A DNA stretch of 17,213 nucleotides from a virus. Its lineage: Duplodnaviria > Heunggongvirae > Uroviricota > Caudoviricetes. This document shows, in pieces, positions 8,092 through 17,213 of the stretch. The stretch spans positions 1 through 17,213 of IMG/VR virus record IMGVR_UViG_2681813004_000008, one strand, 5' to 3'. Both the position numbers and the translations under genes were made by a program. Every line of letters begins with the position of its first letter. Position 1 is the first letter of the stretch. The notes beneath the pieces are model-generated. The model was not told where the DNA came from, made no database searches, and saw nothing but the letters and a program-made list of their open reading frames with translations.

Positions 8092-8322
8092 ATGAACCCA
8101 GCCATCAAAACAGCGATCAATATCGTTGGTTCACAAAAGAAACTAGGCGCTGCCTGCGAAGTTTCACAGCAGGCCGTCTATAAGTGGCTTCACAACAAAG
8201 CAAAGGTATCCCCTGAACATGTCGGCAGCATTGTTACGGCTACTGGTGGAGTAGTGAAGGCATACCAGATTCGCCCGGATCTTCCGAAGTTGTTTCCACA
8301 CACTGAAAAGAACGCAGCTTAA
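8092..8322 (+). CDS. cro: Cro-like HTH regulator, 76 aa
   Basis: Small HTH protein (GSQKKLGAACEVSQQAVYKW) divergent from cI; GGAGG ribosome-binding site 5 nt upstream. Confidence 0.8.
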   Translation: MNPAIKTAINIVGSQKKLGAACEVSQQAVYKWLHNKAKVSPEHVGSIVTATGGVVKAYQIRPDLPKLFPHTEKNAA

Positions 8323-8334
8323 ATTTCCATTTCA

Positions 8335-8347
8335 CGCTCTTTAACAA
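8335..8347 (+). promoter_or_regulatory. boxA-like element (nutR position)
   Basis: CGCTCTTTAACAA lies 13 nt downstream of the cro stop and matches the boxA consensus of lambdoid nut sites and rrn leaders. Confidence 0.45.
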
Positions 8348-8391
8348 TAAGCAATCAACTTAACAGTCAATTCAAACTAAAGGAGTCAATT

Positions 8392-8931
8392 ATGCAACCA
8401 CTTACATACCAACAGACTAGCGGATTTAGCCCGACTGCGGTGATAAATCGTTCTCAAACAAAACAAGCTCCAGGCCACGAAAAAATCCGTGATGCCGTCC
8501 GCGCCTGGTCGGCTGTAGATAATCAGGATGTCGTTGCCGCACTCATTGTGAATGAGTATCGGGAGCAGGGCGGCGGCACCATCGATTTCCCTGATGATGT
8601 CAGCCGTGCACGCCAGAAGCTGTTCCGCTTCCTCGATAACAAATTCGATTCTGAAAAATACAGAAATAACGTGCGTGAACTGACCCCGGCAATTCTGGCG
8701 GTACTACCGCTGGAATATCGCGGTTACCTAGTTGAGCAGGATAGCTTCATGGCTCGGCTGGCTGAAATGGAAAAGGAACTCAGTGAGGCAAAGCAGGCGG
8801 TCATTCTCAACGCACCACGCCACCAGAAACTGAAGGAGATGAGTGAAGGCATTGTGTCGATGTTTCGAGTGGACCCGGATCTGGCTGGTCCACTGATGGC
8901 AATGGTCACCACCATGCTGGGGGCAATATGA
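8392..8931 (+). CDS. Phage early regulatory protein in the cII position (YdaT-like?), 179 aa
   Basis: ORF directly downstream of cro/nutR with a good ribosome-binding site (AAAGGAG); assignment by position and vague family resemblance only. Confidence 0.45.
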   Translation: MQPLTYQQTSGFSPTAVINRSQTKQAPGHEKIRDAVRAWSAVDNQDVVAALIVNEYREQGGGTIDFPDDVSRARQKLFRFLDNKFDSEKYRNNVRELTPAILAVLPLEYRGYLVEQDSFMARLAEMEKELSEAKQAVILNAPRHQKLKEMSEGIVSMFRVDPDLAGPLMAMVTTMLGAI

Positions 8932-9017
8932 CAGGTTCAGAAATGGCGAAAGCCGGTCTGCTGGAACAGAACCGACTTTCAGGTGCAAATCGTAACACAC
9001 TCATTGCGGGAGGAATT

Positions 9018-9908
9018 ATGGCAAACACTGCTGAGATATTCAATTTTCCAGTGCCGGATGCGGCACAAAAGGAGCCGCGCGTGGCAGATCTCGATGATGG
9101 TTATACGCGCATTGCAAACGAGTTGCTGGAAGCTGTGATGCTGGCCGGATTAACACAGCACCAGCTTCTGGTCTTTCTGGCTGTCATGCGCAAAACATAT
9201 GGCTTTAATAAAAAACTGGATTGGGTTAGCAACGAGCAACTTTCCGAATTAACCGGGATATTGCCGCACAAGTGTTCTGCTGCAAAAAGTGTTCTGGTAA
9301 AGCGTGGGATTTTTATTCAGAGCGGGCGGAATACCGGCATTAATAATGTGGTCAGTGAATGGTCAACATTACCCGAATCAGGTAAGAAAAATAAAGTTTA
9401 CCTGAAAGAGGTAAATTTACCCAAATCAGGTAAAGGCGTTTACCCGAATCAGGTAAACACAAAAGACAAACTAACAAAAGACAATATAAAACCTTTTTCG
9501 TCCGAGAATTCTGGCGAATCCTCTGACCAACCAGAAAACGATCTTCCTGTGGTGAAACCGGATGCTGCAATTCAGAGCGGCAGCAAGTGGGGGACAGCAG
9601 AAGACCTGACCGCCGCAGAGTGGATGTTTGACATGGTGAAGACCATCGCGCCATCAGCCAGAAAACCGAATTTTGCTGGGTGGGCTAACGATATCCGCCT
9701 GATGCGTGAACGTGACGGACGTAACCACCGCGATATGTGCGTGCTGTTCCGCTGGGCATGCCAGGACAACTTCTGGTCCGGTAACGTGCTAAGTCCGGCC
9801 AAACTCCGCGACAAGTGGACCCAACTCGAAATCAACCGTAACAAGCAACAGGCTGGCGTGACAGCTAGCAAACCAATGGGCATGCCAGGACAACTTCTGG
9901 TCCGGTAA
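9018..9908 (+). CDS. O: Replication initiator O (lambda-type C-terminal domain) with aberrant C-terminus from a frameshifting tandem duplication
   Basis: From MANTAEIFNF... with GGAGG ribosome-binding site; segment AEWMFDMVKTIAPSARKPNFAGWANDIRLMRERDGRNHRDMCVLFRWACQDNFWSGNVLSPAKLRDKWTQLEINRNKQQAGVTASKP matches lambda O as recalled, but the ORF ends ...MGMPGQLLVR after a 124-bp duplication. Confidence 0.85.
   Translation: MANTAEIFNFPVPDAAQKEPRVADLDDGYTRIANELLEAVMLAGLTQHQLLVFLAVMRKTYGFNKKLDWVSNEQLSELTGILPHKCSAAKSVLVKRGIFIQSGRNTGINNVVSEWSTLPESGKKNKVYLKEVNLPKSGKGVYPNQVNTKDKLTKDNIKPFSSENSGESSDQPENDLPVVKPDAAIQSGSKWGTAEDLTAAEWMFDMVKTIAPSARKPNFAGWANDIRLMRERDGRNHRDMCVLFRWACQDNFWSGNVLSPAKLRDKWTQLEINRNKQQAGVTASKPMGMPGQLLVR
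9369..9500 (+). other. Replication origin inside O: four about 19-bp iterons plus an AT-rich region
   Basis: Iterons TTACCCGAATCAGGTAA (9369), TTTACCTGAAAGAGGTAAA (9397), TTTACCCAAATCAGGTAAA (9416), TTTACCCGAATCAGGTAAA (9439), each with TACC...GGTA dyad symmetry, followed by an A-rich tract (9458-9500). Confidence 0.75.
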
Positions 9909-9999
9909 CGTGCTAAGTCCGGCCAAACTCCGCGACAAGTGGACCCAACTCGAAATCAACCGTAACAAGCAACAGGCTGGCGTGACAGCTGGAAAACCA
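9752..9999 (+). repeat. Tandem direct duplication, 2 x 124 bp, in the 3' end of O
   Basis: 9752-9875 and 9876-9999 are identical except for two mismatches near the 3' end (AGCAAACCAA vs GGAAAACCAA). Confidence 0.9.
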
Positions 10000-10043
10000 A
10001 AACTCGACCTGACAAACACTGACTGGATTTACGGGGTGGATCT

Positions 10044-10745
10044 ATGAAAAACATCGCCGCACAGATGGTTAACTTTGACCGTGAGCAGATGCGTCGGATC
10101 GCCAACAACATGCCGGAACAGTACGACGAAAAGCCGCAGGTACAGCAGGTAGCGCAGATAATCAACGGTGTATTCAGCCAGTTACTGGCAACTTTCCCGG
10201 CGAGCCTGGCTAATCGTGACCAGAACGAACTGAACGAAATCCGCCGCCAGTGGGTTCTGGCTTTCCGGGAAAACGGGATCACCACGATGGAACAGGTGAG
10301 CGCCGGAATGCGTGTTGCCCGTCGGCAGAATAGACCATTTCTGCCATCACCCGGGCAGTTTGTTGCATGGTGCCGGGAAGAAGCATCCGTTACCGCCGGG
10401 CTGCCAAACGTCAGCGAGCTGGTTGATATGGTTTACGAGTATTGCCGGAAGCGTGGCCTGTATCCGGATGCAGAGTCTTATCCGTGGAAATCAAACGCGC
10501 ACTACTGGCTGGTTACCAACCTGTATCAGAACATGCGGGCCAATGCGCTGACTGACGCGGAATTACGACGCAAGGCTGCCGATGAACTGACCTGTATGAC
10601 AGCGCGAATTAACCGTGGTGAGGCGATACCTGAACCAGTAAAACAACTTCCTGTCATGGGCGGCAGACCTCTAAATCTATTACAGGCGCTGGCGAAGATC
10701 GCAGAAATTAAAGCTAAGTTCGGACTGAAAGGAGCAAGTGTATGA
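10044..10745 (+). CDS. P: Replication protein P (DnaB helicase loader), 233 aa
   Basis: MKNIAAQMVNFDREQMRRIANNMPEQYDEKPQVQQVAQIINGVFSQLLATFPASLANRDQ... near-identical to lambda P as recalled. Confidence 0.93.
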   Translation: MKNIAAQMVNFDREQMRRIANNMPEQYDEKPQVQQVAQIINGVFSQLLATFPASLANRDQNELNEIRRQWVLAFRENGITTMEQVSAGMRVARRQNRPFLPSPGQFVAWCREEASVTAGLPNVSELVDMVYEYCRKRGLYPDAESYPWKSNAHYWLVTNLYQNMRANALTDAELRRKAADELTCMTARINRGEAIPEPVKQLPVMGGRPLNLLQALAKIAEIKAKFGLKGASV

Positions 10746-11044
10746 CGGGCAAAGAGGCAATTATTCATTACCTGGGGACGCATAAGAGCTTCTGTGCACA
10801 GGACGTTGCCGCGGTAACAGGCGCAACCGTAACCAGCATAAATCAGGCTGCGGCTAAAATGGCGCGGGCAGGAATCCTGGTCGTTGATGGTAAGGTCTGG
10901 CGAACGGTGTATTACCGGTTCGCTACCAGAGAAGAACGGGAAGGAAAGGTGAGCACGAATCTGATTTTTAAGGAGTGTCGCCAGAGTGCCGCGATGAAAC
11001 GGGTACTGAGGGTATATAAAAGAACATCAATGGGAACACAATGA
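10742..11044 (+). CDS. ren: Ren-like protein (rex exclusion escape), 100 aa
   Basis: MTGKEAIIHYLGTHKSFCAQDVAAVTGATVTSINQAAAKMARAGILVVDGKVWRTVYYRFATREEREGK matches lambda Ren; start overlaps the P stop. Confidence 0.8.
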   Translation: MTGKEAIIHYLGTHKSFCAQDVAAVTGATVTSINQAAAKMARAGILVVDGKVWRTVYYRFATREEREGKVSTNLIFKECRQSAAMKRVLRVYKRTSMGTQ

Positions 11045-11111
11045 TGAAACAGGTGAGTTGAGTTCAAACTGTAGTACAATTCTCTCCAGTTTGAACAGGA
11101 AAGAATATGCT

Positions 11112-11444
11112 ATGAACCCTTATATTTATCTTGGTGGTGCAATACTTGCAGAGGTCATTGGTACAACCTTAATGAAGTTTTCAGAAGGTTTTACACGGTT
11201 ATGGCCATCTGTTGGTACAATTATTTGTTATTGTGCATCATTCTGGTTATTAGCTCAGACGCTGGCTTATATTCCTACAGGGATTGCTTATGCTATCTGG
11301 TCAGGAGTCGGTATTGTCCTGATTAGCTTACTGTCATGGGGATTTTTCGGCCAACGGCTGGACCTGCCAGCCATTATAGGCATGATGTTGATTTGTGCCG
11401 GTGTGTTGGTTATTAATTTATTGTCACGAAGCACACCACATTAA
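11112..11444 (+). CDS. emrE: Small multidrug resistance efflux transporter EmrE, 110 aa
   Basis: MNPYIYLGGAILAEVIGTTLMKFSEGFTRLWPSVGTIICYCASFWLLAQTLAYIPTGIAYAIWSGVGIVLISLL... ; four-helix SMR protein with the conserved membrane Glu. Confidence 0.93.
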   Translation: MNPYIYLGGAILAEVIGTTLMKFSEGFTRLWPSVGTIICYCASFWLLAQTLAYIPTGIAYAIWSGVGIVLISLLSWGFFGQRLDLPAIIGMMLICAGVLVINLLSRSTPH

Positions 11445-11474
11445 AATAATTTGTTTCTAAACGACTAAAATATG

Positions 11475-11505
11475 GAGGCTCTTATATTTATATGAGCCTC
11501 GTTTT
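11475..11505 (+). terminator. Rho-independent terminator after emrE
   Basis: GAGGCTC-(12 nt loop)-GAGCCTC hairpin followed by GTTTT. Confidence 0.6.
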
Positions 11506-11698
11506 ATGCTTTTTGTTAATGTCTTTATTTTTTATGTATTCTTTTGTGCTTTCAAGATTATGGCGTAAGAAAATTGCAATACGATTATTGTTGTATATTC
11601 AAGATAATGTGACCTTAATTGTCTTTTTAAATAAAAATTAAACAAAAATTATATCCCACCACTAAGGTTTATAAAAGCATACGTTAGCAGGTGTCACC

Positions 11699-13225
11699 AT
11701 GAAAAAAGCCATAGCATATATGCGATTTTCATCACCAGGTCAGATGTCTGGCGACTCATTAAACCGACAGAGAAGACTTATTGCTGAATGGTTAAAGGTA
11801 AATAGTGATTATTATCTTGATACCATAACATATGAAGATTTAGGATTAAGTGCATTCAAAGGAAAGCATGCACAATCAGGAGCTTTTTCGGAATTTTTAG
11901 ATGCTATAGAGCATGGTTATATATTGCCAGGAACTACATTGTTAGTTGAAAGTCTGGACAGACTTTCAAGAGAAAACGTCGGTGAAGCGATTGAACGTCT
12001 GAAATTGATTTTGAATCACGGTATTGATGTTATAACTCTTTGCGACAATACAGTCTATAATATTGACTCTTTGAATGAGCCATATTCATTAATAAAAGCC
12101 ATACTTATAGCACAAAGGGCAAATGAAGAAAGCGAGATAAAGTCAAGTCGGGTTAAATTATCATGGAAGAAAAAACGGCAGGATGCACTGGAATCAGGTA
12201 CGATTATGACGGCGTCTTGTCCGAGATGGCTCTCCTTAGATGACAAAAGAACGGCTTTTGTTCCAGACCCCGACAGGGTGAAAACTATTGAGCTAATTTT
12301 TAAACTCAGGATGGAAAGGCGCTCATTGAATGCAATAGCCAAGTATTTAAATGATCATGCTGTAAAGAATTTCTCAGGAAAAGAAAGTGCATGGGGACCT
12401 TCTGTAATTGAAAAATTATTAGCGAATAAAACTCTGATAGGTATATGCGTACCTTCATATCGTGCAAGAGGGAAAGGGATAAGTGAAATCGCTGGCTATT
12501 ATCCCAGAGTCATATCAGATGATTTGTTTTACGCTGTACAGGAAATTCGGTTGGCACCTTTTGGTATTAGCAATAGTAGCAAGAATCCTATGCTAATAAA
12601 TCTACTTCGAACAGTTATGAAGTGTGAGGCTTGTGGTAATACCATGATTGTTCATGCGGTATCTGGAAGTTTGCATGGCTATTATGTTTGTCCGATGAGA
12701 AGATTACATCGATGTGACAGGCCATCAATAAAAAGAGATTTGGTTGATTATAATATCATTAATGAATTGCTTTTTAATTGTAGCAAAATTCAACCAGTTG
12801 AAAACAAGAAAGATGCTAATGAAACTTTAGAGTTAAAAATTATTGAGCTTCAGATGAAAATTAATAATTTAATCGTTGCATTGTCTGTCGCGCCTGAAGT
12901 TACCGCTATAGCAGAGAAAATAAGACTATTAGATAAGGAATTACGAAGGGCTTCGGTATCATTGAAAACTTTGAAGAGTAAAGGTGTAAATTCATTCAGT
13001 GATTTTTATGCTATTGACTTAACCAGTAAAAATGGACGAGAGTTATGCCGTACACTTGCCTATAAAACATTCGAAAAAATCATAATTAATACGGATAATA
13101 AAACCTGTGATATCTATTTTATGAATGGCATTGTTTTTAAACACTATCCTTTAATGAAAGTAATATCCGCCCAGCAGGCGATAAGTGCTCTCAAATATAT
13201 GGTTGATGGTGAGATTTATTTCTAA
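11699..13225 (+). CDS. ybcK: Large serine recombinase (resolvase/invertase N-domain + recombinase domain + zinc ribbon), 508 aa
   Basis: N-terminal AIAYMRFSSPGQ (catalytic Ser region), central recombinase region and CEACG...C cysteine cluster; matches DLP12 YbcK in size and position. Confidence 0.85.
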   Translation: MKKAIAYMRFSSPGQMSGDSLNRQRRLIAEWLKVNSDYYLDTITYEDLGLSAFKGKHAQSGAFSEFLDAIEHGYILPGTTLLVESLDRLSRENVGEAIERLKLILNHGIDVITLCDNTVYNIDSLNEPYSLIKAILIAQRANEESEIKSSRVKLSWKKKRQDALESGTIMTASCPRWLSLDDKRTAFVPDPDRVKTIELIFKLRMERRSLNAIAKYLNDHAVKNFSGKESAWGPSVIEKLLANKTLIGICVPSYRARGKGISEIAGYYPRVISDDLFYAVQEIRLAPFGISNSSKNPMLINLLRTVMKCEACGNTMIVHAVSGSLHGYYVCPMRRLHRCDRPSIKRDLVDYNIINELLFNCSKIQPVENKKDANETLELKIIELQMKINNLIVALSVAPEVTAIAEKIRLLDKELRRASVSLKTLKSKGVNSFSDFYAIDLTSKNGRELCRTLAYKTFEKIIINTDNKTCDIYFMNGIVFKHYPLMKVISAQQAISALKYMVDGEIYF

Positions 13226-13689
13226 ATAATGATCTCGGATTTTAAGTTATGCTATGGTGATAAAGTGCAAGACAGAATTAATTATCTTTGACGAAACTTA
13301 ATGGGTAATTACTTTGTTTGCTCCCACAAGCGAGTTTTGTACGGCTGTATTGGGGTAGTAAATGAGCTATACAATCTTAATCATTTGTTAGGTGAGAACT
13401 CTTGGTCGCAGATTCAAATACTGAAAATACGTGACAAATTATTATGAGCAAAATGGTGTATGTCACGTATTTTGAATGGTAGGTTAAAAAATAACACCGA
13501 CTTTCGTAGGTATTACTAATAATAAAGCAGAGTTTTTAGATAGTATCAATGTGCTTTGTGTATATTGTGGCAAATAATTGGGTTGGGGGTACAATTGTGA
13601 TTGCTTTTGCATGAACATTGCGCCTTTATGCATAATGAGATAAAGGAATATCAAATAAAATAACGATAGGTCATAACAAAGAGGTTTTT

Positions 13690-14241
13690 ATGAAAACACT
13701 TATCGTTTCAACTGTATTGGCATTCATAACATTTTCTGCGCAGGCTGCAGCATTTCAGGTCACTAGTAATGAAATAAAAACAGGAGAGCAACTTACAACG
13801 TCTCATGTCTTTTCTGGATTTGGGTGTGAAGGTGGTAATACATCGCCCTCATTAACCTGGTCTGGTGTTCCTGAAGGTACCAAAAGCTTTGCCGTAACTG
13901 TATATGATCCAGATGCACCTACAGGCAGTGGCTGGTGGCATTGGACTGTTGTTAATATTCCAGCAACAGTAACATATTTGCCCGTTGATGCAGGGAGACG
14001 TGATGGAACAAAACTGCCGACTGGTGCTGTTCAAGGCCGAAATGATTTTGGCTATGCTGGGTTTGGTGGCGCATGTCCTCCTAAAGGAGATAAACCACAT
14101 CATTACCAGTTTAAAGTATGGGCTCTAAAAACTGAAAAGATTCCTGTAGATTCTAACTCCAGCGGAGCGTTAGTTGGTTATATGCTTAATGCTAATAAAA
14201 TCGCAACCGCTGAGATAACACCAGTTTATGAGATAAAGTAG
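13690..14241 (+). CDS. ybcL: Secreted PEBP/Raf-kinase-inhibitor-like protein (YbcL/UPF0098 family), 183 aa
   Basis: N-terminal signal peptide MKTLIVSTVLAFITFSAQAAA; PEBP motifs YDPDAP and GGACPPKG...HHYQF. Confidence 0.85.
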   Translation: MKTLIVSTVLAFITFSAQAAAFQVTSNEIKTGEQLTTSHVFSGFGCEGGNTSPSLTWSGVPEGTKSFAVTVYDPDAPTGSGWWHWTVVNIPATVTYLPVDAGRRDGTKLPTGAVQGRNDFGYAGFGGACPPKGDKPHHYQFKVWALKTEKIPVDSNSSGALVGYMLNANKIATAEITPVYEIK

Positions 14242-14250
14242 GGTGAGAGT

Positions 14251-15048
14251 ATGCTGGCAAGAGGTAAGACTAACTTAAAGATCGAAGAAATACGGATGCA
14301 TAAACATCATGAGATTCATAGGGTTAAGCCTCTTATGCCAGCTTTGTGTCGTATCCGTCAGGGAAAGAAAGTTATCAATTGGGAGACGCATACTTTAACT
14401 GTTGATAATAATCAAATAATATTATTTCCTTGTGGTTATGAATTTTATATTGAGAATTATCCTGAAGCAGGGCTTTATCTTGCAGAAATGCTTTACTTAC
14501 CCATTGATTTAATTGAGAGTTTCCAAAAACTTTATACGGTAACTGATCAAATACGTAACAAAACAAGTTTCTTTTTACCTCAGAATCCTGAGTTAATATA
14601 TTGTTGGGAGCAACTAAAAACATCTGTTTCCCGAGGCTTCTCAACTAAAATTCAGGAGCACTTAGCAATGGGCGTTCTACTTTCGTTAGGAGTGAATCAT
14701 GTTAATCATTTACTTTTATCATATAGTAAACAATCATTGATAAGTCGTTGTTATAACCTGCTGCTATCCGAACCCGGCACAAAATGGACAGCAAACAAGG
14801 TTGCTCGATATCTCTACATTTCTGTTTCTACATTACATCGCCGTCTAGCAAGCGAGGGGGTAAGTTTCCAAAGTATACTGGACGATGTGAGGTTAAATAA
14901 TGCGTTGTCTGCTATACAAACGACGGTAAAACCTATAAGCGAGATTGCCAGAGAAAATGGTTATAAGTGTCCTTCTCGTTTTACTGAAAGATTTCATAAT
15001 CGTTTTAATATAACACCAAGAGAGATAAGAAAAGCTTCCAGAGAGTAA
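14251..15048 (+). CDS. ybcM: AraC/XylS-family transcriptional regulator, 265 aa
   Basis: C-terminal double HTH ([36 protein letters not shown]...[19 protein letters not shown]). Confidence 0.85.
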
Positions 15049-15112
15049 AAGTGTTTTAAGAAGGAGCAATTCTATCGATTTTGATTTTGGGAAATCAACA
15101 CGGCATAATTAT

Positions 15113-15141
15113 GTCACCGGAGCCTGAACAACTCCGGTGAC
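15113..15141 (+). other. Perfect 10-bp GC-rich stem-loop (terminator or regulatory hairpin) between ybcM and ylcH
   Basis: GTCACCGGAG-cctgaacaa-CTCCGGTGAC; no T-tract follows on the plus strand. Confidence 0.45.
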
Positions 15142-15164
15142 TTCTGCGCTAAACGGGGACGTTT

Positions 15165-15266
15165 ATGCGCACATACAATCCAAACTCTCTTCTCCCTTCA
15201 CAGATGCAGAAATGCACCTGCAATTCTTTGCATCTAGCGTTTGACCTCTGCGGAGGTGAAGCGTGA
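15165..15266 (+). CDS. ylcH: Small protein YlcH-like (33 aa)
   Basis: ATG...[33 protein letters not shown]; stop overlaps the GTG start of ybcN. Below the 60-aa cutoff of the supplied ORF track. Confidence 0.45.
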
Positions 15267-15718
15267 ACCTCTCACAAGACGGCATCAAATTACATCGCGG
15301 CAACTTCACCGCTATCGGTCGGCAGATCCAGCCTTATCTGGAGGAGGGCAAATGCTTTCGCATGGTGCTTAAACCGTGGCGTGAGAAACGCAGTCTTTCC
15401 CAGAATGCACTCAGCCACATGTGGTACAGCGAAATCAGTGAATACCTCATCAGCAGGGGTAAAACGTTCGCCACTCCAGCTTGGGTAAAAGATGCTCTCA
15501 AACACACATATCTCGGTTATGAAACCAAAGACCTGGTTGATGTCGTAACCGGTGATATCACCACTATCCAGTCGTTACGCCATACCTCCGATCTTGATAC
15601 CGGAGAGATGTATGTCTTCCTGTGTAAGGTTGAAGCCTGGGCGGTGAATATTGGCTGCCACCTGACTATTCCGCAGAGCTGCGAGTTCCAGCTGCTCCGC
15701 GACAAGCAGGAGGCGTAA
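15263..15718 (+). CDS. ybcN: NinB/YbcN-family protein, 151 aa
   Basis: GTG start after [16 protein letters not shown] motif shared with lambda NinB (Orf); conserved nin-region position. Confidence 0.8.
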
Positions 15719-15888
15719 TGGCTACACCGCTTATTCGTGTCATGAACGGACACATCTACAGAGTATCAAATCGTCGTAAGCGTAAGCCTGAGCTGAAGCC
15801 ATCCGAAATACCAACACTGCTCGGATATACCGCTAGCCTGGTTGATAAAAAATGGTTGCGACTGGCAGCAAGGAGGAATCATGGCTGA
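15718..15888 (+). CDS. ninE: NinE-like small protein, 56 aa
   Basis: [56 protein letters not shown]; start overlaps ybcN stop (TAATG). Not in the supplied ORF track. Confidence 0.75.
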   Translation: MATPLIRVMNGHIYRVSNRRKRKPELKPSEIPTLLGYTASLVDKKWLRLAARRNHG

Positions 15889-16171
15889 TTTGAGAAAAGC
15901 AGCGCGTGGTCGGGAATGCCAGGTAAGAATCCCTGGCGTATGTAATGGCAATTCTGAAACGTCTGTACTGGCACATATCCGGCTGGCTGGATTGTGCGGT
16001 ACCGGTATCAAACCGCCAGACCTGATTGCCACCATTGCATGTTCTGCCTGCCACGACGAAATCGACCGCCGCACACATTTTGTCGATGCTGCATATGCAA
16101 AAGAATGCGCGCTGGAAGGTATGGCGAGAACACAGGTTATCTGGCTGAAAGAGGGGGTTATTAAGGCGTGA
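15881..16171 (+). CDS. ybcO: YbcO-like (DUF1364) putative zinc-binding nuclease, 96 aa
   Basis: [24 protein letters not shown]...[11 protein letters not shown] with cysteine/histidine cluster; AGGAGG ribosome-binding site; overlaps ninE stop. Confidence 0.8.
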
Positions 16172-16530
16172 ATACCTACAGTATCACATTACCCTGGCCT
16201 CCGAGCAATAATCGCTATTACCGCCATAATCGCGGGCGCACGCACGTCAGTGCAGAGGGGCAGGCATACCGCGATAACGTCGCCCGAATCATTAAAAACG
16301 CAATGCTGGATATCGGCCTGGCTATGCCTGTGAAAATCCGCATTGAGTGCCACATGCCGGATCGCCGTCGCCGTGACCTGGATAATCTGCAAAAAGCCGC
16401 TTTTGACGCACTCACCAAAGCAGGTTTCTGGCTGGATGATGCTCAGGTCGTTGATTACCGCGTTGTGAAGATGCCTGTTACCAAAGGTGGGAGGCTGGAA
16501 CTGACCATCACCGAAATGGGGAATGAATGA
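16168..16530 (+). CDS. rusA: Holliday-junction resolvase RusA, 120 aa
   Basis: (GTG start) [46 protein letters not shown]...[30 protein letters not shown] matches RusA. Confidence 0.93.
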
Positions 16531-16667
16531 TGTTTGAGTTTTATATGGCAGAACTTCTTCGCCACCGCTGGGGGCATCTGCGCTTATATCGTTTCCCCGG
16601 TTCTGTTTTGACCGATTACCGAATACTGAAGAATTACGCCAAAACCCTGACAGGAGCAGGAGTATGA
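16527..16667 (+). CDS. ylcG: Small protein YlcG-like (46 aa)
   Basis: [46 protein letters not shown]; overlaps the rusA stop. Confidence 0.55.
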
Positions 16668-16752
16668 AGTCAGAGATAACAATCAACTAATACTGTTTTG
16701 TTGATTTTTGCTTGTAATTGGCGTTCTGGTCTGATTTTTGTGGAGTAAGTTG

Positions 16753-17106
16753 ATGCGTGATATTCAGATGGTTCTTGAGCGTTGGGGAGCGTGGGCGGCT
16801 AATAATCATGAAGATGTGACCTGGTCGTCCATTGCCGCCGGTTTTAAGGGATTAATTACTTCAAAAGTAAAATCTCGCCCGCAATGTTGTGACGATGACG
16901 CGATGATTATTTGCGGGTGCATGGCCCGTCTGAAAAAGAACAACAGCGATTTGCACGATTTATTAGTAGATTATTATGTAGTCGGTATGACATTCATGTC
17001 ACTGGCAGGTAAGCATTGCTGCTCTGATGGTTATATCGGGAAAAGGTTACAGAAGGCTGAGGGCATAATTGAAGGGATGTTAATGGCATTAGATATCCGG
17101 TTAGAG
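16753..17106 (+). pseudogene. quuD: Q-like late antiterminator (QuuD type), 3' end replaced by IS1
   Basis: [90 protein letters not shown]... ; the frame continues into IS1 at 17107 and ends with an IS1-encoded tail. Confidence 0.75.
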
Positions 17107-17213
17107 GGTAATGACTCCAACTTACTGATAGTGTTTTATGTTCAGATAATGCCCGATGACCTTGTCATGCAGCTCCACCGATTTTGAGAACGACAGTGAC
17201 TTCCGTCCCAGCC
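17107..17213 (-). mobile_element. IS1 partial copy, inverted relative to the copy at 1-137; window ends inside the element
   Basis: GGTAATGACTCCAACTTACTGAT terminus at 17107-17129; 17178-17213 is the reverse complement of 30-65 with one mismatch, and three differences from the left copy overall. Confidence 0.88.
17122..17213 (-). CDS. insB: IS1 transposase InsB, 3' end only (5' partial)
   Basis: Reverse complement encodes ...[15 protein letters not shown], stop at 17122-17124. Confidence 0.8.

Follow-up and report, generated by a model that had tools for sequence, protein, structure and literature searches.

Two IS1 copies at the ends of a draft Escherichia coli/Shigella contig carrying fimZ, argU and the early half of a DLP12-type prophage

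Organization of the locus

The window analysed in this work, a stretch of DNA of 17,213 bp, is the complete contig AOTC01000315.1 of the draft assembly GCA_001447405.1. The source is a short-read draft E. coli/Shigella genome, and each end of the contig lies inside an IS1 copy. Between these two elements, the interior (138-17106) is colinear with the IS1-free fimZ-argU-DLP12 locus of E. coli R1 at 99.6% identity, and the alignment ends exactly at the IS1 tips. The features of the window are as follows.

1-137, plus strand: left IS1 stub, comprising the 3' end of insB and the right inverted repeat (IRR); 137/137 identical to IS1A; cut at base 1 by the contig end
138-146, no strand assigned: the 9 bp adjoining the left IS1, CCATAATGA, read directly; one copy of the target duplication if the insertion is simple
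138-303, minus strand: 5' fragment of fimZ, codons 1-55, identical to nt 1-166 of R1 fimZ (translation and R1 annotation)
546-622, plus strand: tRNA-Arg(UCU) gene argU, the attachment site of DLP12-type prophages (ARAGORN)
638-16667, no strand assigned: early half of a DLP12-type lambdoid prophage (99.6% colinearity with R1; gene calls and Pfam families)
16753-17106, plus strand: quuD, codons 1-118 of 127 (PF06530; R1 quuD annotation)
16753-17187, plus strand: fusion ORF of QuuD residues 1-118 and 26 IS1-encoded residues, with its stop at 17185-17187 (translation)
17098-17106, no strand assigned: the 9 bp adjoining the right IS1, CGGTTAGAG, read directly; one copy of the target duplication if the insertion is simple
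17107-17213, minus strand: right IS1 stub, comprising the IRR and the 3' end of insB; variant isoform; cut at 17213 by the contig end

When the whole window was compared with 5,426 complete E. coli genomes, the best match was R1, which has neither IS1 copy, and the two copies together were found in 0 of the 5,426. The prophage is of the DLP12 type, as shown by the argU tRNA gene (546-622) beside intD (638-1801) and by the DLP12 gene order; in prophage-free relatives, the homology to the window stops at 624. The prophage runs from intD to quuD and is gene-for-gene colinear with R1, the order of the early half being intD, gam, the bet-exo fusion, kinase/phosphatase, repressor, O, P, ren, emrE, ybcK, ybcL, ybcM, ybcN, ninE, ybcO, rusA and ylcG. 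With DLP12, which lies at argU of E. coli K-12 and is fuller in R1, it has in common the attachment site, intD, the order through emrE, ybcK-ybcO, rusA, ylcG and quuD. Three features set the window prophage apart from R1: the IS1 in quuD, the joining of bet and exo by a 68-nt deletion and, in gene O, a tandem duplication of 124 bp. Its late half lies outside the window.

Several further details of the prophage were observed. The bet and exo genes form one 464-aa ORF with RecT and YqaJ domains (3278-4672, minus strand), which results, relative to R1, from the 68-nt deletion between short direct repeats (GTGCCATGC / GTGTCATGC); the identical fusion protein occurs on only 5 contigs of the collection, including L008, L009, L011 and the window contig itself. 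Between kil and the repressor, a PP2C-type phosphatase (247 aa) is encoded beside a Ser/Thr protein kinase (241 aa) at 5737-7202 on the minus strand; this moron-like pair is present in this version of DLP12 and in R1, and it is absent from L008. In gene O, the tandem duplication is imperfect and occupies 9753-10000, with 2 mismatches between the copies (9867 and 9869); it shifts the frame, so that the O protein has 326 aa and P begins after a gap of 135 nt. The duplicated segment is single-copy in R1 and in the close relative L009, and the patch that follows it (9978-10709) shows 17 substitutions relative to both of them. In the Logan assembly of SRR21284099, a break falls between 9526 and 10961. 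The region may reflect a genuine duplication or a patch of gene conversion, or else a mis-join caused by a second lambdoid O/P region in the genome; the suspicious tandem duplication at 9753-10000 implies that the contig assembly is not flawless.

Identity and orientation of the IS1 stubs

IS1 is a multicopy element that inserts into genes and is known for its 9-bp duplications, adjacent deletions and inversions. A full element has 768 bp, with insA, insB' and a -1 frameshift; what the window contains is its last 137 nt on the left and 107 nt on the right, and the left inverted repeat (IRL) ends fall outside the window. The terminal repeat of IS1 (IRR GGTAATGACTCCAACTTATTGAT, IRL GGTGATGCTGCCAACTTACTGAT) was found in its IRR form at 115-137, as the reverse complement, and at 17107-17129, with a T19C change, and both stubs have high nucleotide identity to reference IS1 copies. 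The right stub opens with GGTAATGACTCCAACTTACTGAT, which is the IRR, and is the reverse complement of 31-137. A repeat search returned arms at 31-143 and 17101-17213 (113 nt, 96% complementary), in which the 6 nt of each arm that lie past the IS1 tip pair at 4/6 positions by chance. The transposase gene of the IS1A annotated in locus L003 has its 3' end at the GGTAATGAC end; therefore, both stubs are IRR ends, the two copies face each other, and both transposase genes read toward the interior. The C-terminal 39 (left) and 29 (right) residues of insB are intact and identical in both stubs. A preliminary description of this DNA had reported a second, inverted and non-identical IS1 at 17107-17213, and the IRR and insB 3' end found there, in the orientation opposite to that of the stub at 1-137, confirm this assignment.

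In an exact comparison, the two stubs are identical at 104/107 positions, and the differences lie 19, 55 and 91 nt from the IRR tip, where the right stub has C19, C55 and T91. The differences at 55 and 91 are synonymous in insB, while that at 19 lies past the insB stop and within the IRR, so that the terminal repeat itself reads TTACTGAT in one copy and TTATTGAT in the other; the three differences noted earlier, including that in the repeat, were thus recovered. Three complete E. coli genomes contain annotated IS1A copies to which the left stub is identical over 137/137 nt, although stub sequence at contig ends may mix reads from other IS1 copies and the left isoform is read from this contig alone. 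The right isoform matches the IS1A references at 104/107 positions, but many chromosomes and plasmids of complete E. coli genomes contain it at 107/107 (100%); with so many perfect matches, it is a genuine and common variant rather than noise from the assembly. Its first 28 nt are also confirmed by an independent assembly (L015). The earlier view that the copies are different isoforms therefore holds, the left being IS1A and the right a widespread variant. That the three differences are sequencing errors was considered and rejected, since many genomes contain the isoform exactly, two of the three changes are synonymous, and the change at position 19 recurs in an independent assembly. In their termini and insB 3' ends, the stubs match the IS1 elements (IS1A/IS1R type and iso-forms) of E. 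coli and Shigella chromosomes, and nothing about them is different in kind.

Short-read assemblers halt shortly inside any multicopy element. Because IS1 is multicopy, the assembler was unable to cross either element, and the contig stops 137 and 107 nt inside them. Both stubs are contig ends, and we infer that these are repeat-induced breaks, as are seen in short-read assemblies of IS-rich Enterobacteriaceae; the window likewise ends just inside a multicopy IS on both sides. Such breaks are an assembly effect and not a biological feature. In the related assemblies, the contigs break at the quuD::IS1 junction or within 3 nt of it. Since the window is the entire contig, the statement that it is bracketed by an inverted IS1 pair mainly reports where the assembly broke and does not hold as a description of genome architecture.

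The insertion in quuD

Intact QuuD has 127 aa, and IS1 enters the gene after codon 118. The Q antiterminator family PF06530 (Q21/QuuD type) aligns with residues 1-118 over profile positions 1-118 of 118 (E = 4.9e-53), and the same span is aligned in intact QuuD. Thus, IS1 sits exactly at the end of the conserved Q domain, and only the tail MDIVVNNSN gives way to 26 residues encoded by IS1. QuuD also distantly matches the solved Q protein chains 6P18 and 6JNX (E = 7.6e-07). The preliminary description was right to place an IS1 in the 3' end of the Q gene, but in stating that the element replaces this end it went too far, as only the last 9 codons are displaced and the Pfam Q domain is fully retained; its statement that the early half is cut off from the late genes is overstated as well. 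Judged from its sequence, the QuuD-IS1 fusion keeps a complete Q domain, and loss of the late-gene regulator is not established.

The exact QuuD-IS1 fusion product is on record for AOTC01000315.1 only. The junction, including the C19 variant, recurs in L015, a locus from the Logan assembly of SRR21284099 that matches the window over 10961-17134 at 100% identity. In addition, the contig of L014 (GCA_024934585.1) ends 3 nt before the quuD::IS1 junction, and a 118-aa "partial" QuuD is found on two further contigs, the longer of which is 39.6 kb. A 60-nt probe for the quuD::IS1 junction had no exact copy in complete E. coli genomes, and the inner junction gave 0 exact-pattern matches in species-representative genomes and JGI metagenomes. 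For a simple insertion, the far side of the quuD copy is predicted to consist of the IRL, CGGTTAGAG and ATGGATATCGTTGTTAATAAC (ATGGATATCG), followed by the porin gene and the essD/rrrD lysis genes; this predicted sequence likewise had 0 exact-pattern matches in the species-representative genomes and JGI metagenomes.

A neighbouring insertion is visible from both sides in E. coli DXMF6-3R. This strain has a simple IS1A insertion in quuD, at a site 5 bp further downstream; the element is flanked by a target duplication of its own, AGAGATGGA, and beyond it come the porin gene and essD. Compared with the copy in the window, it lies in the same gene and in the same orientation and likewise leaves the Q domain intact. 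On the other hand, it is a separate event, being of the IS1A isoform and having AGAGATGGA as its target, and both of its sides are visible.

The insertion in fimZ and neighbouring insertions

At the left junction, fimZ codons 1-55 read into the IS1 tip, giving a 56-aa product that ends in …IIMG and a stop codon. The fimZ::IS1 junction had no exact copy in complete E. coli genomes (60-nt probe), and its inner junction gave 0 exact-pattern matches in species-representative genomes and JGI metagenomes. A probe for the junction in the opposite orientation matched only IS1 ends with chance similarity in the flank, no record was found for a 77-aa product from an alternative FimZ' start, and a search of the literature on fimZ and IS1 returned nothing relevant. 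If the insertion is simple, the far side of the fimZ copy is predicted to read IRL (ATCAGTAAGTTGGCAGCATCACC, read outward), TCATTATGG and ATATTGATTTGCC (fimZ nt 167 onward), with sfmF next. From a simple insertion at codon 55, a C-terminal FimZ fragment of 156 aa is predicted, starting at M56 inside the putative duplication; this fragment is present on 94 contigs, a number similar to that of the contigs with N-terminal fragments of 47-56 aa. This suggests that insertions in the region of the fimZ codon-55 site are commonly simple.

In two other sources, L006 (GCA_002546515.1) and L007 (SRR17184625), IS1 is inserted at the identical fimZ nucleotide in the opposite orientation. The junctions (L006 9652-9724 and L007 8235-8255) correspond to window 137/138, and there the IRL end, GGTGATGCTGCC, abuts the 5' part of fimZ. 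Neither of the two has a prophage at argU, which is followed by envY, ybcH and nfrA. Both orientations of IS1 yield the same 56-aa product by coincidence, as GGTAA and GGTGA both contain a stop. The two junctions cannot be interconverted by recombination within the IS, and therefore the fimZ insertion in the window and those in L006 and L007 are independent.

Another type of junction is found in the complete E. coli genomes VE-V11-M and A37 (L018 and L019, 1870-2637), which share an IS1A-fimZ IRR junction located 18 bp from that of the window and in the orientation of the window. On the IRL side, an sfmD fragment is found in one of these genomes and the folD region in the other, and there are no matching 9-mers. 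These are nested IS1 adjacent deletions that removed part or all of the sfm fimbrial operon. Taken together, the insertions suggest that fimZ and the 3' end of quuD are local IS1 hot spots, with repeated independent insertions within 5-18 bp of each other. Local hot spots are a known property of IS1.

Two other contig ends in fimZ were observed. A Logan contig of SRR22600508 (L005 10160-10169) leaves fimZ at the nucleotide at which the window does and ends in …ATTATGGGGC, which fits neither IS1 end (GGT…) nor fimZ (GAT…); the divergence may reflect a different element or a contig-end error. The contig of L009 (GCA_014391625.1, 14370-14762) stops at codon 131 of a fimZ with the change H115Y, and this end may be yet another repeat insertion in fimZ.

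Origin of the two IS1 copies

The preliminary description compared the 9 bp next to each IS1 and concluded from their difference that a simple composite insertion could be discounted. The left 9-mer, CCATAATGA (138-146), was given correctly, whereas the right one was misread as CCGTTAGAG, since 17098-17106 reads CGGTTAGAG. The argument itself is invalid. The duplication made by a composite transposon lies outside the pair, and that of a single IS1 pairs its inner flank with its outer flank. The inner 9-mers of two different elements are thus never expected to match, and the comparison is silent on rearrangement. As the window holds only the inner flanks, the outer sides that would reveal a simple insertion at either copy lie beyond the contig.

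The best explanation, to which we give a probability of roughly 0.8, is that two separate IS1 insertions into a pre-existing locus are seen as stubs at the contig ends. According to this explanation, a copy of the IS1A type would have entered fimZ after codon 55 and a copy of the variant isoform would have entered quuD after codon 118, presumably at different times, the locus of fimZ', argU, the DLP12 early region and quuD' already being in place. Because the multicopy IS1 would stop the assembler at both elements, this alone would yield the apparent inverted pair. The relative L009 (GCA_014391625.1) bears on whether there were one or two events. Its prophage is 99.95% identical to that of the window over 138-9876 and has the same bet-exo fusion, and the start of its contig extrapolates to 3 nt before the quuD::IS1 junction. 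Its fimZ, on the other hand, is uninterrupted through codon 55 and continues for 227 nt past the left insertion site of the window. Hence, the quuD insertion appears to exist without the fimZ insertion in L009, where, as in L014, the quuD::IS1 junction is deduced from the position of the contig end. Together, the different isoforms, the recurrent quuD junction and the intact fimZ of L009 favour two separate transpositions. Independent insertion, one of the alternatives offered in the preliminary description, is accordingly preferred on the basis of the isoforms, the L015 junction and L009 fimZ, while IS1-mediated inversion or deletion, the others, on which this contig is silent either way, are less probable.

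Of these, an IS1-adjacent deletion at one or both sites is the more serious competitor, though a doubtful one. In this case, the inner junction would be original and the outer end would abut distant DNA; the 3' part of fimZ (possibly with the sfm genes), or the quuD tail and the DLP12 late genes, would be gone. The nested deletions of VE-V11-M and A37, which lie only 18 bp away in fimZ, are classic examples of such events, and the predicted far side of a simple quuD insertion was unmatched where scanned, in collections that would hardly contain it. However, the predicted FimZ C-terminal fragment occurs on 94 contigs, about as many as carry the N-terminal fragments, and in DXMF6-3R the neighbouring quuD insertion is a simple one, with the porin gene and essD beyond it.

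An inversion of the 17-kb segment by homologous recombination between the inverted IS1 copies, or a population that mixes both isomers, is a good deal less probable. Inverted repeats of approximately 768 bp with 97% identity, 17 kb apart, are by established knowledge a valid substrate for recombination, and it can be reasoned that an inversion would leave every junction between an IS end and its flank unchanged and would be invisible from inside the segment. Nevertheless, the relatives and the IS1-free genomes show the standard order only, which provides no positive evidence for a flip, and a short-read contig reports neither way.

Duplicative (replicative) inversion, in which the transposition of one IS1 onto a target 17 kb away made the second copy and the inverted pair together, is very improbable and was rejected. 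From the chemistry of transposition, it yields inverted copies with the same type of end, here the IRR, facing the segment, as is observed; however, any inverted pair has a 50% chance of having the IRR at both inner ends. Duplicative inversion is also expected to produce replicas, whereas the stubs differ at 3/107 positions and match two separate widespread isoforms. Furthermore, in L009 fimZ is intact at the left site, and the contig break at quuD is probably the same quuD::IS1 junction, so that this relative probably has the quuD copy only.

Finally, transport of the segment as the cargo of a Tn9-like IS1 composite transposon is suggested only by the presence of two IS1 copies around a segment with the drug-efflux gene emrE, and it can be dismissed almost outright, since the fimZ-argU-DLP12 locus in the interior is native, being colinear with that of IS1-free genomes and not set in a foreign context, the unit lies at another locus in 0 of 5,426 complete E. 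coli genomes, and the interior ends in broken genes with their 5' parts inward, which implies that the IS1 copies entered an existing locus.

Implications

Two lessons of method follow. Repeats at both ends of a complete draft contig are assembly breaks and not an architectural pair, and inner flanks cannot test target duplications.

A more eventful history is improbable, namely that the right IS1 is a deletion scar, with the DLP12 late region, appY and ompT lost, or that the 17-kb early region is actively inverting between the IS1 copies. If the deletion at the right IS1 were true, the strain would be an intermediate on the way to the "black hole" lacking ompT that Shigella and enteroinvasive E. 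coli typically have. In the relatives that encode the fimZ::IS1 product (L005-L007), the whole prophage is absent and envY directly follows argU.

Based on the results presented here, the window contains two ordinary IS1 insertions in a decaying prophage locus, which are already known in kind. Their biological weight is small, as IS1 in a cryptic prophage and in a fimbrial regulator is part of the routine genome decay of E. coli and Shigella. For specialists in insertion sequences, two minor points may be of interest, namely the closely spaced independent insertions in fimZ and at the 3' end of quuD, and the fimZ codon-55 site, where insertions in different strains share one nucleotide but differ in orientation.
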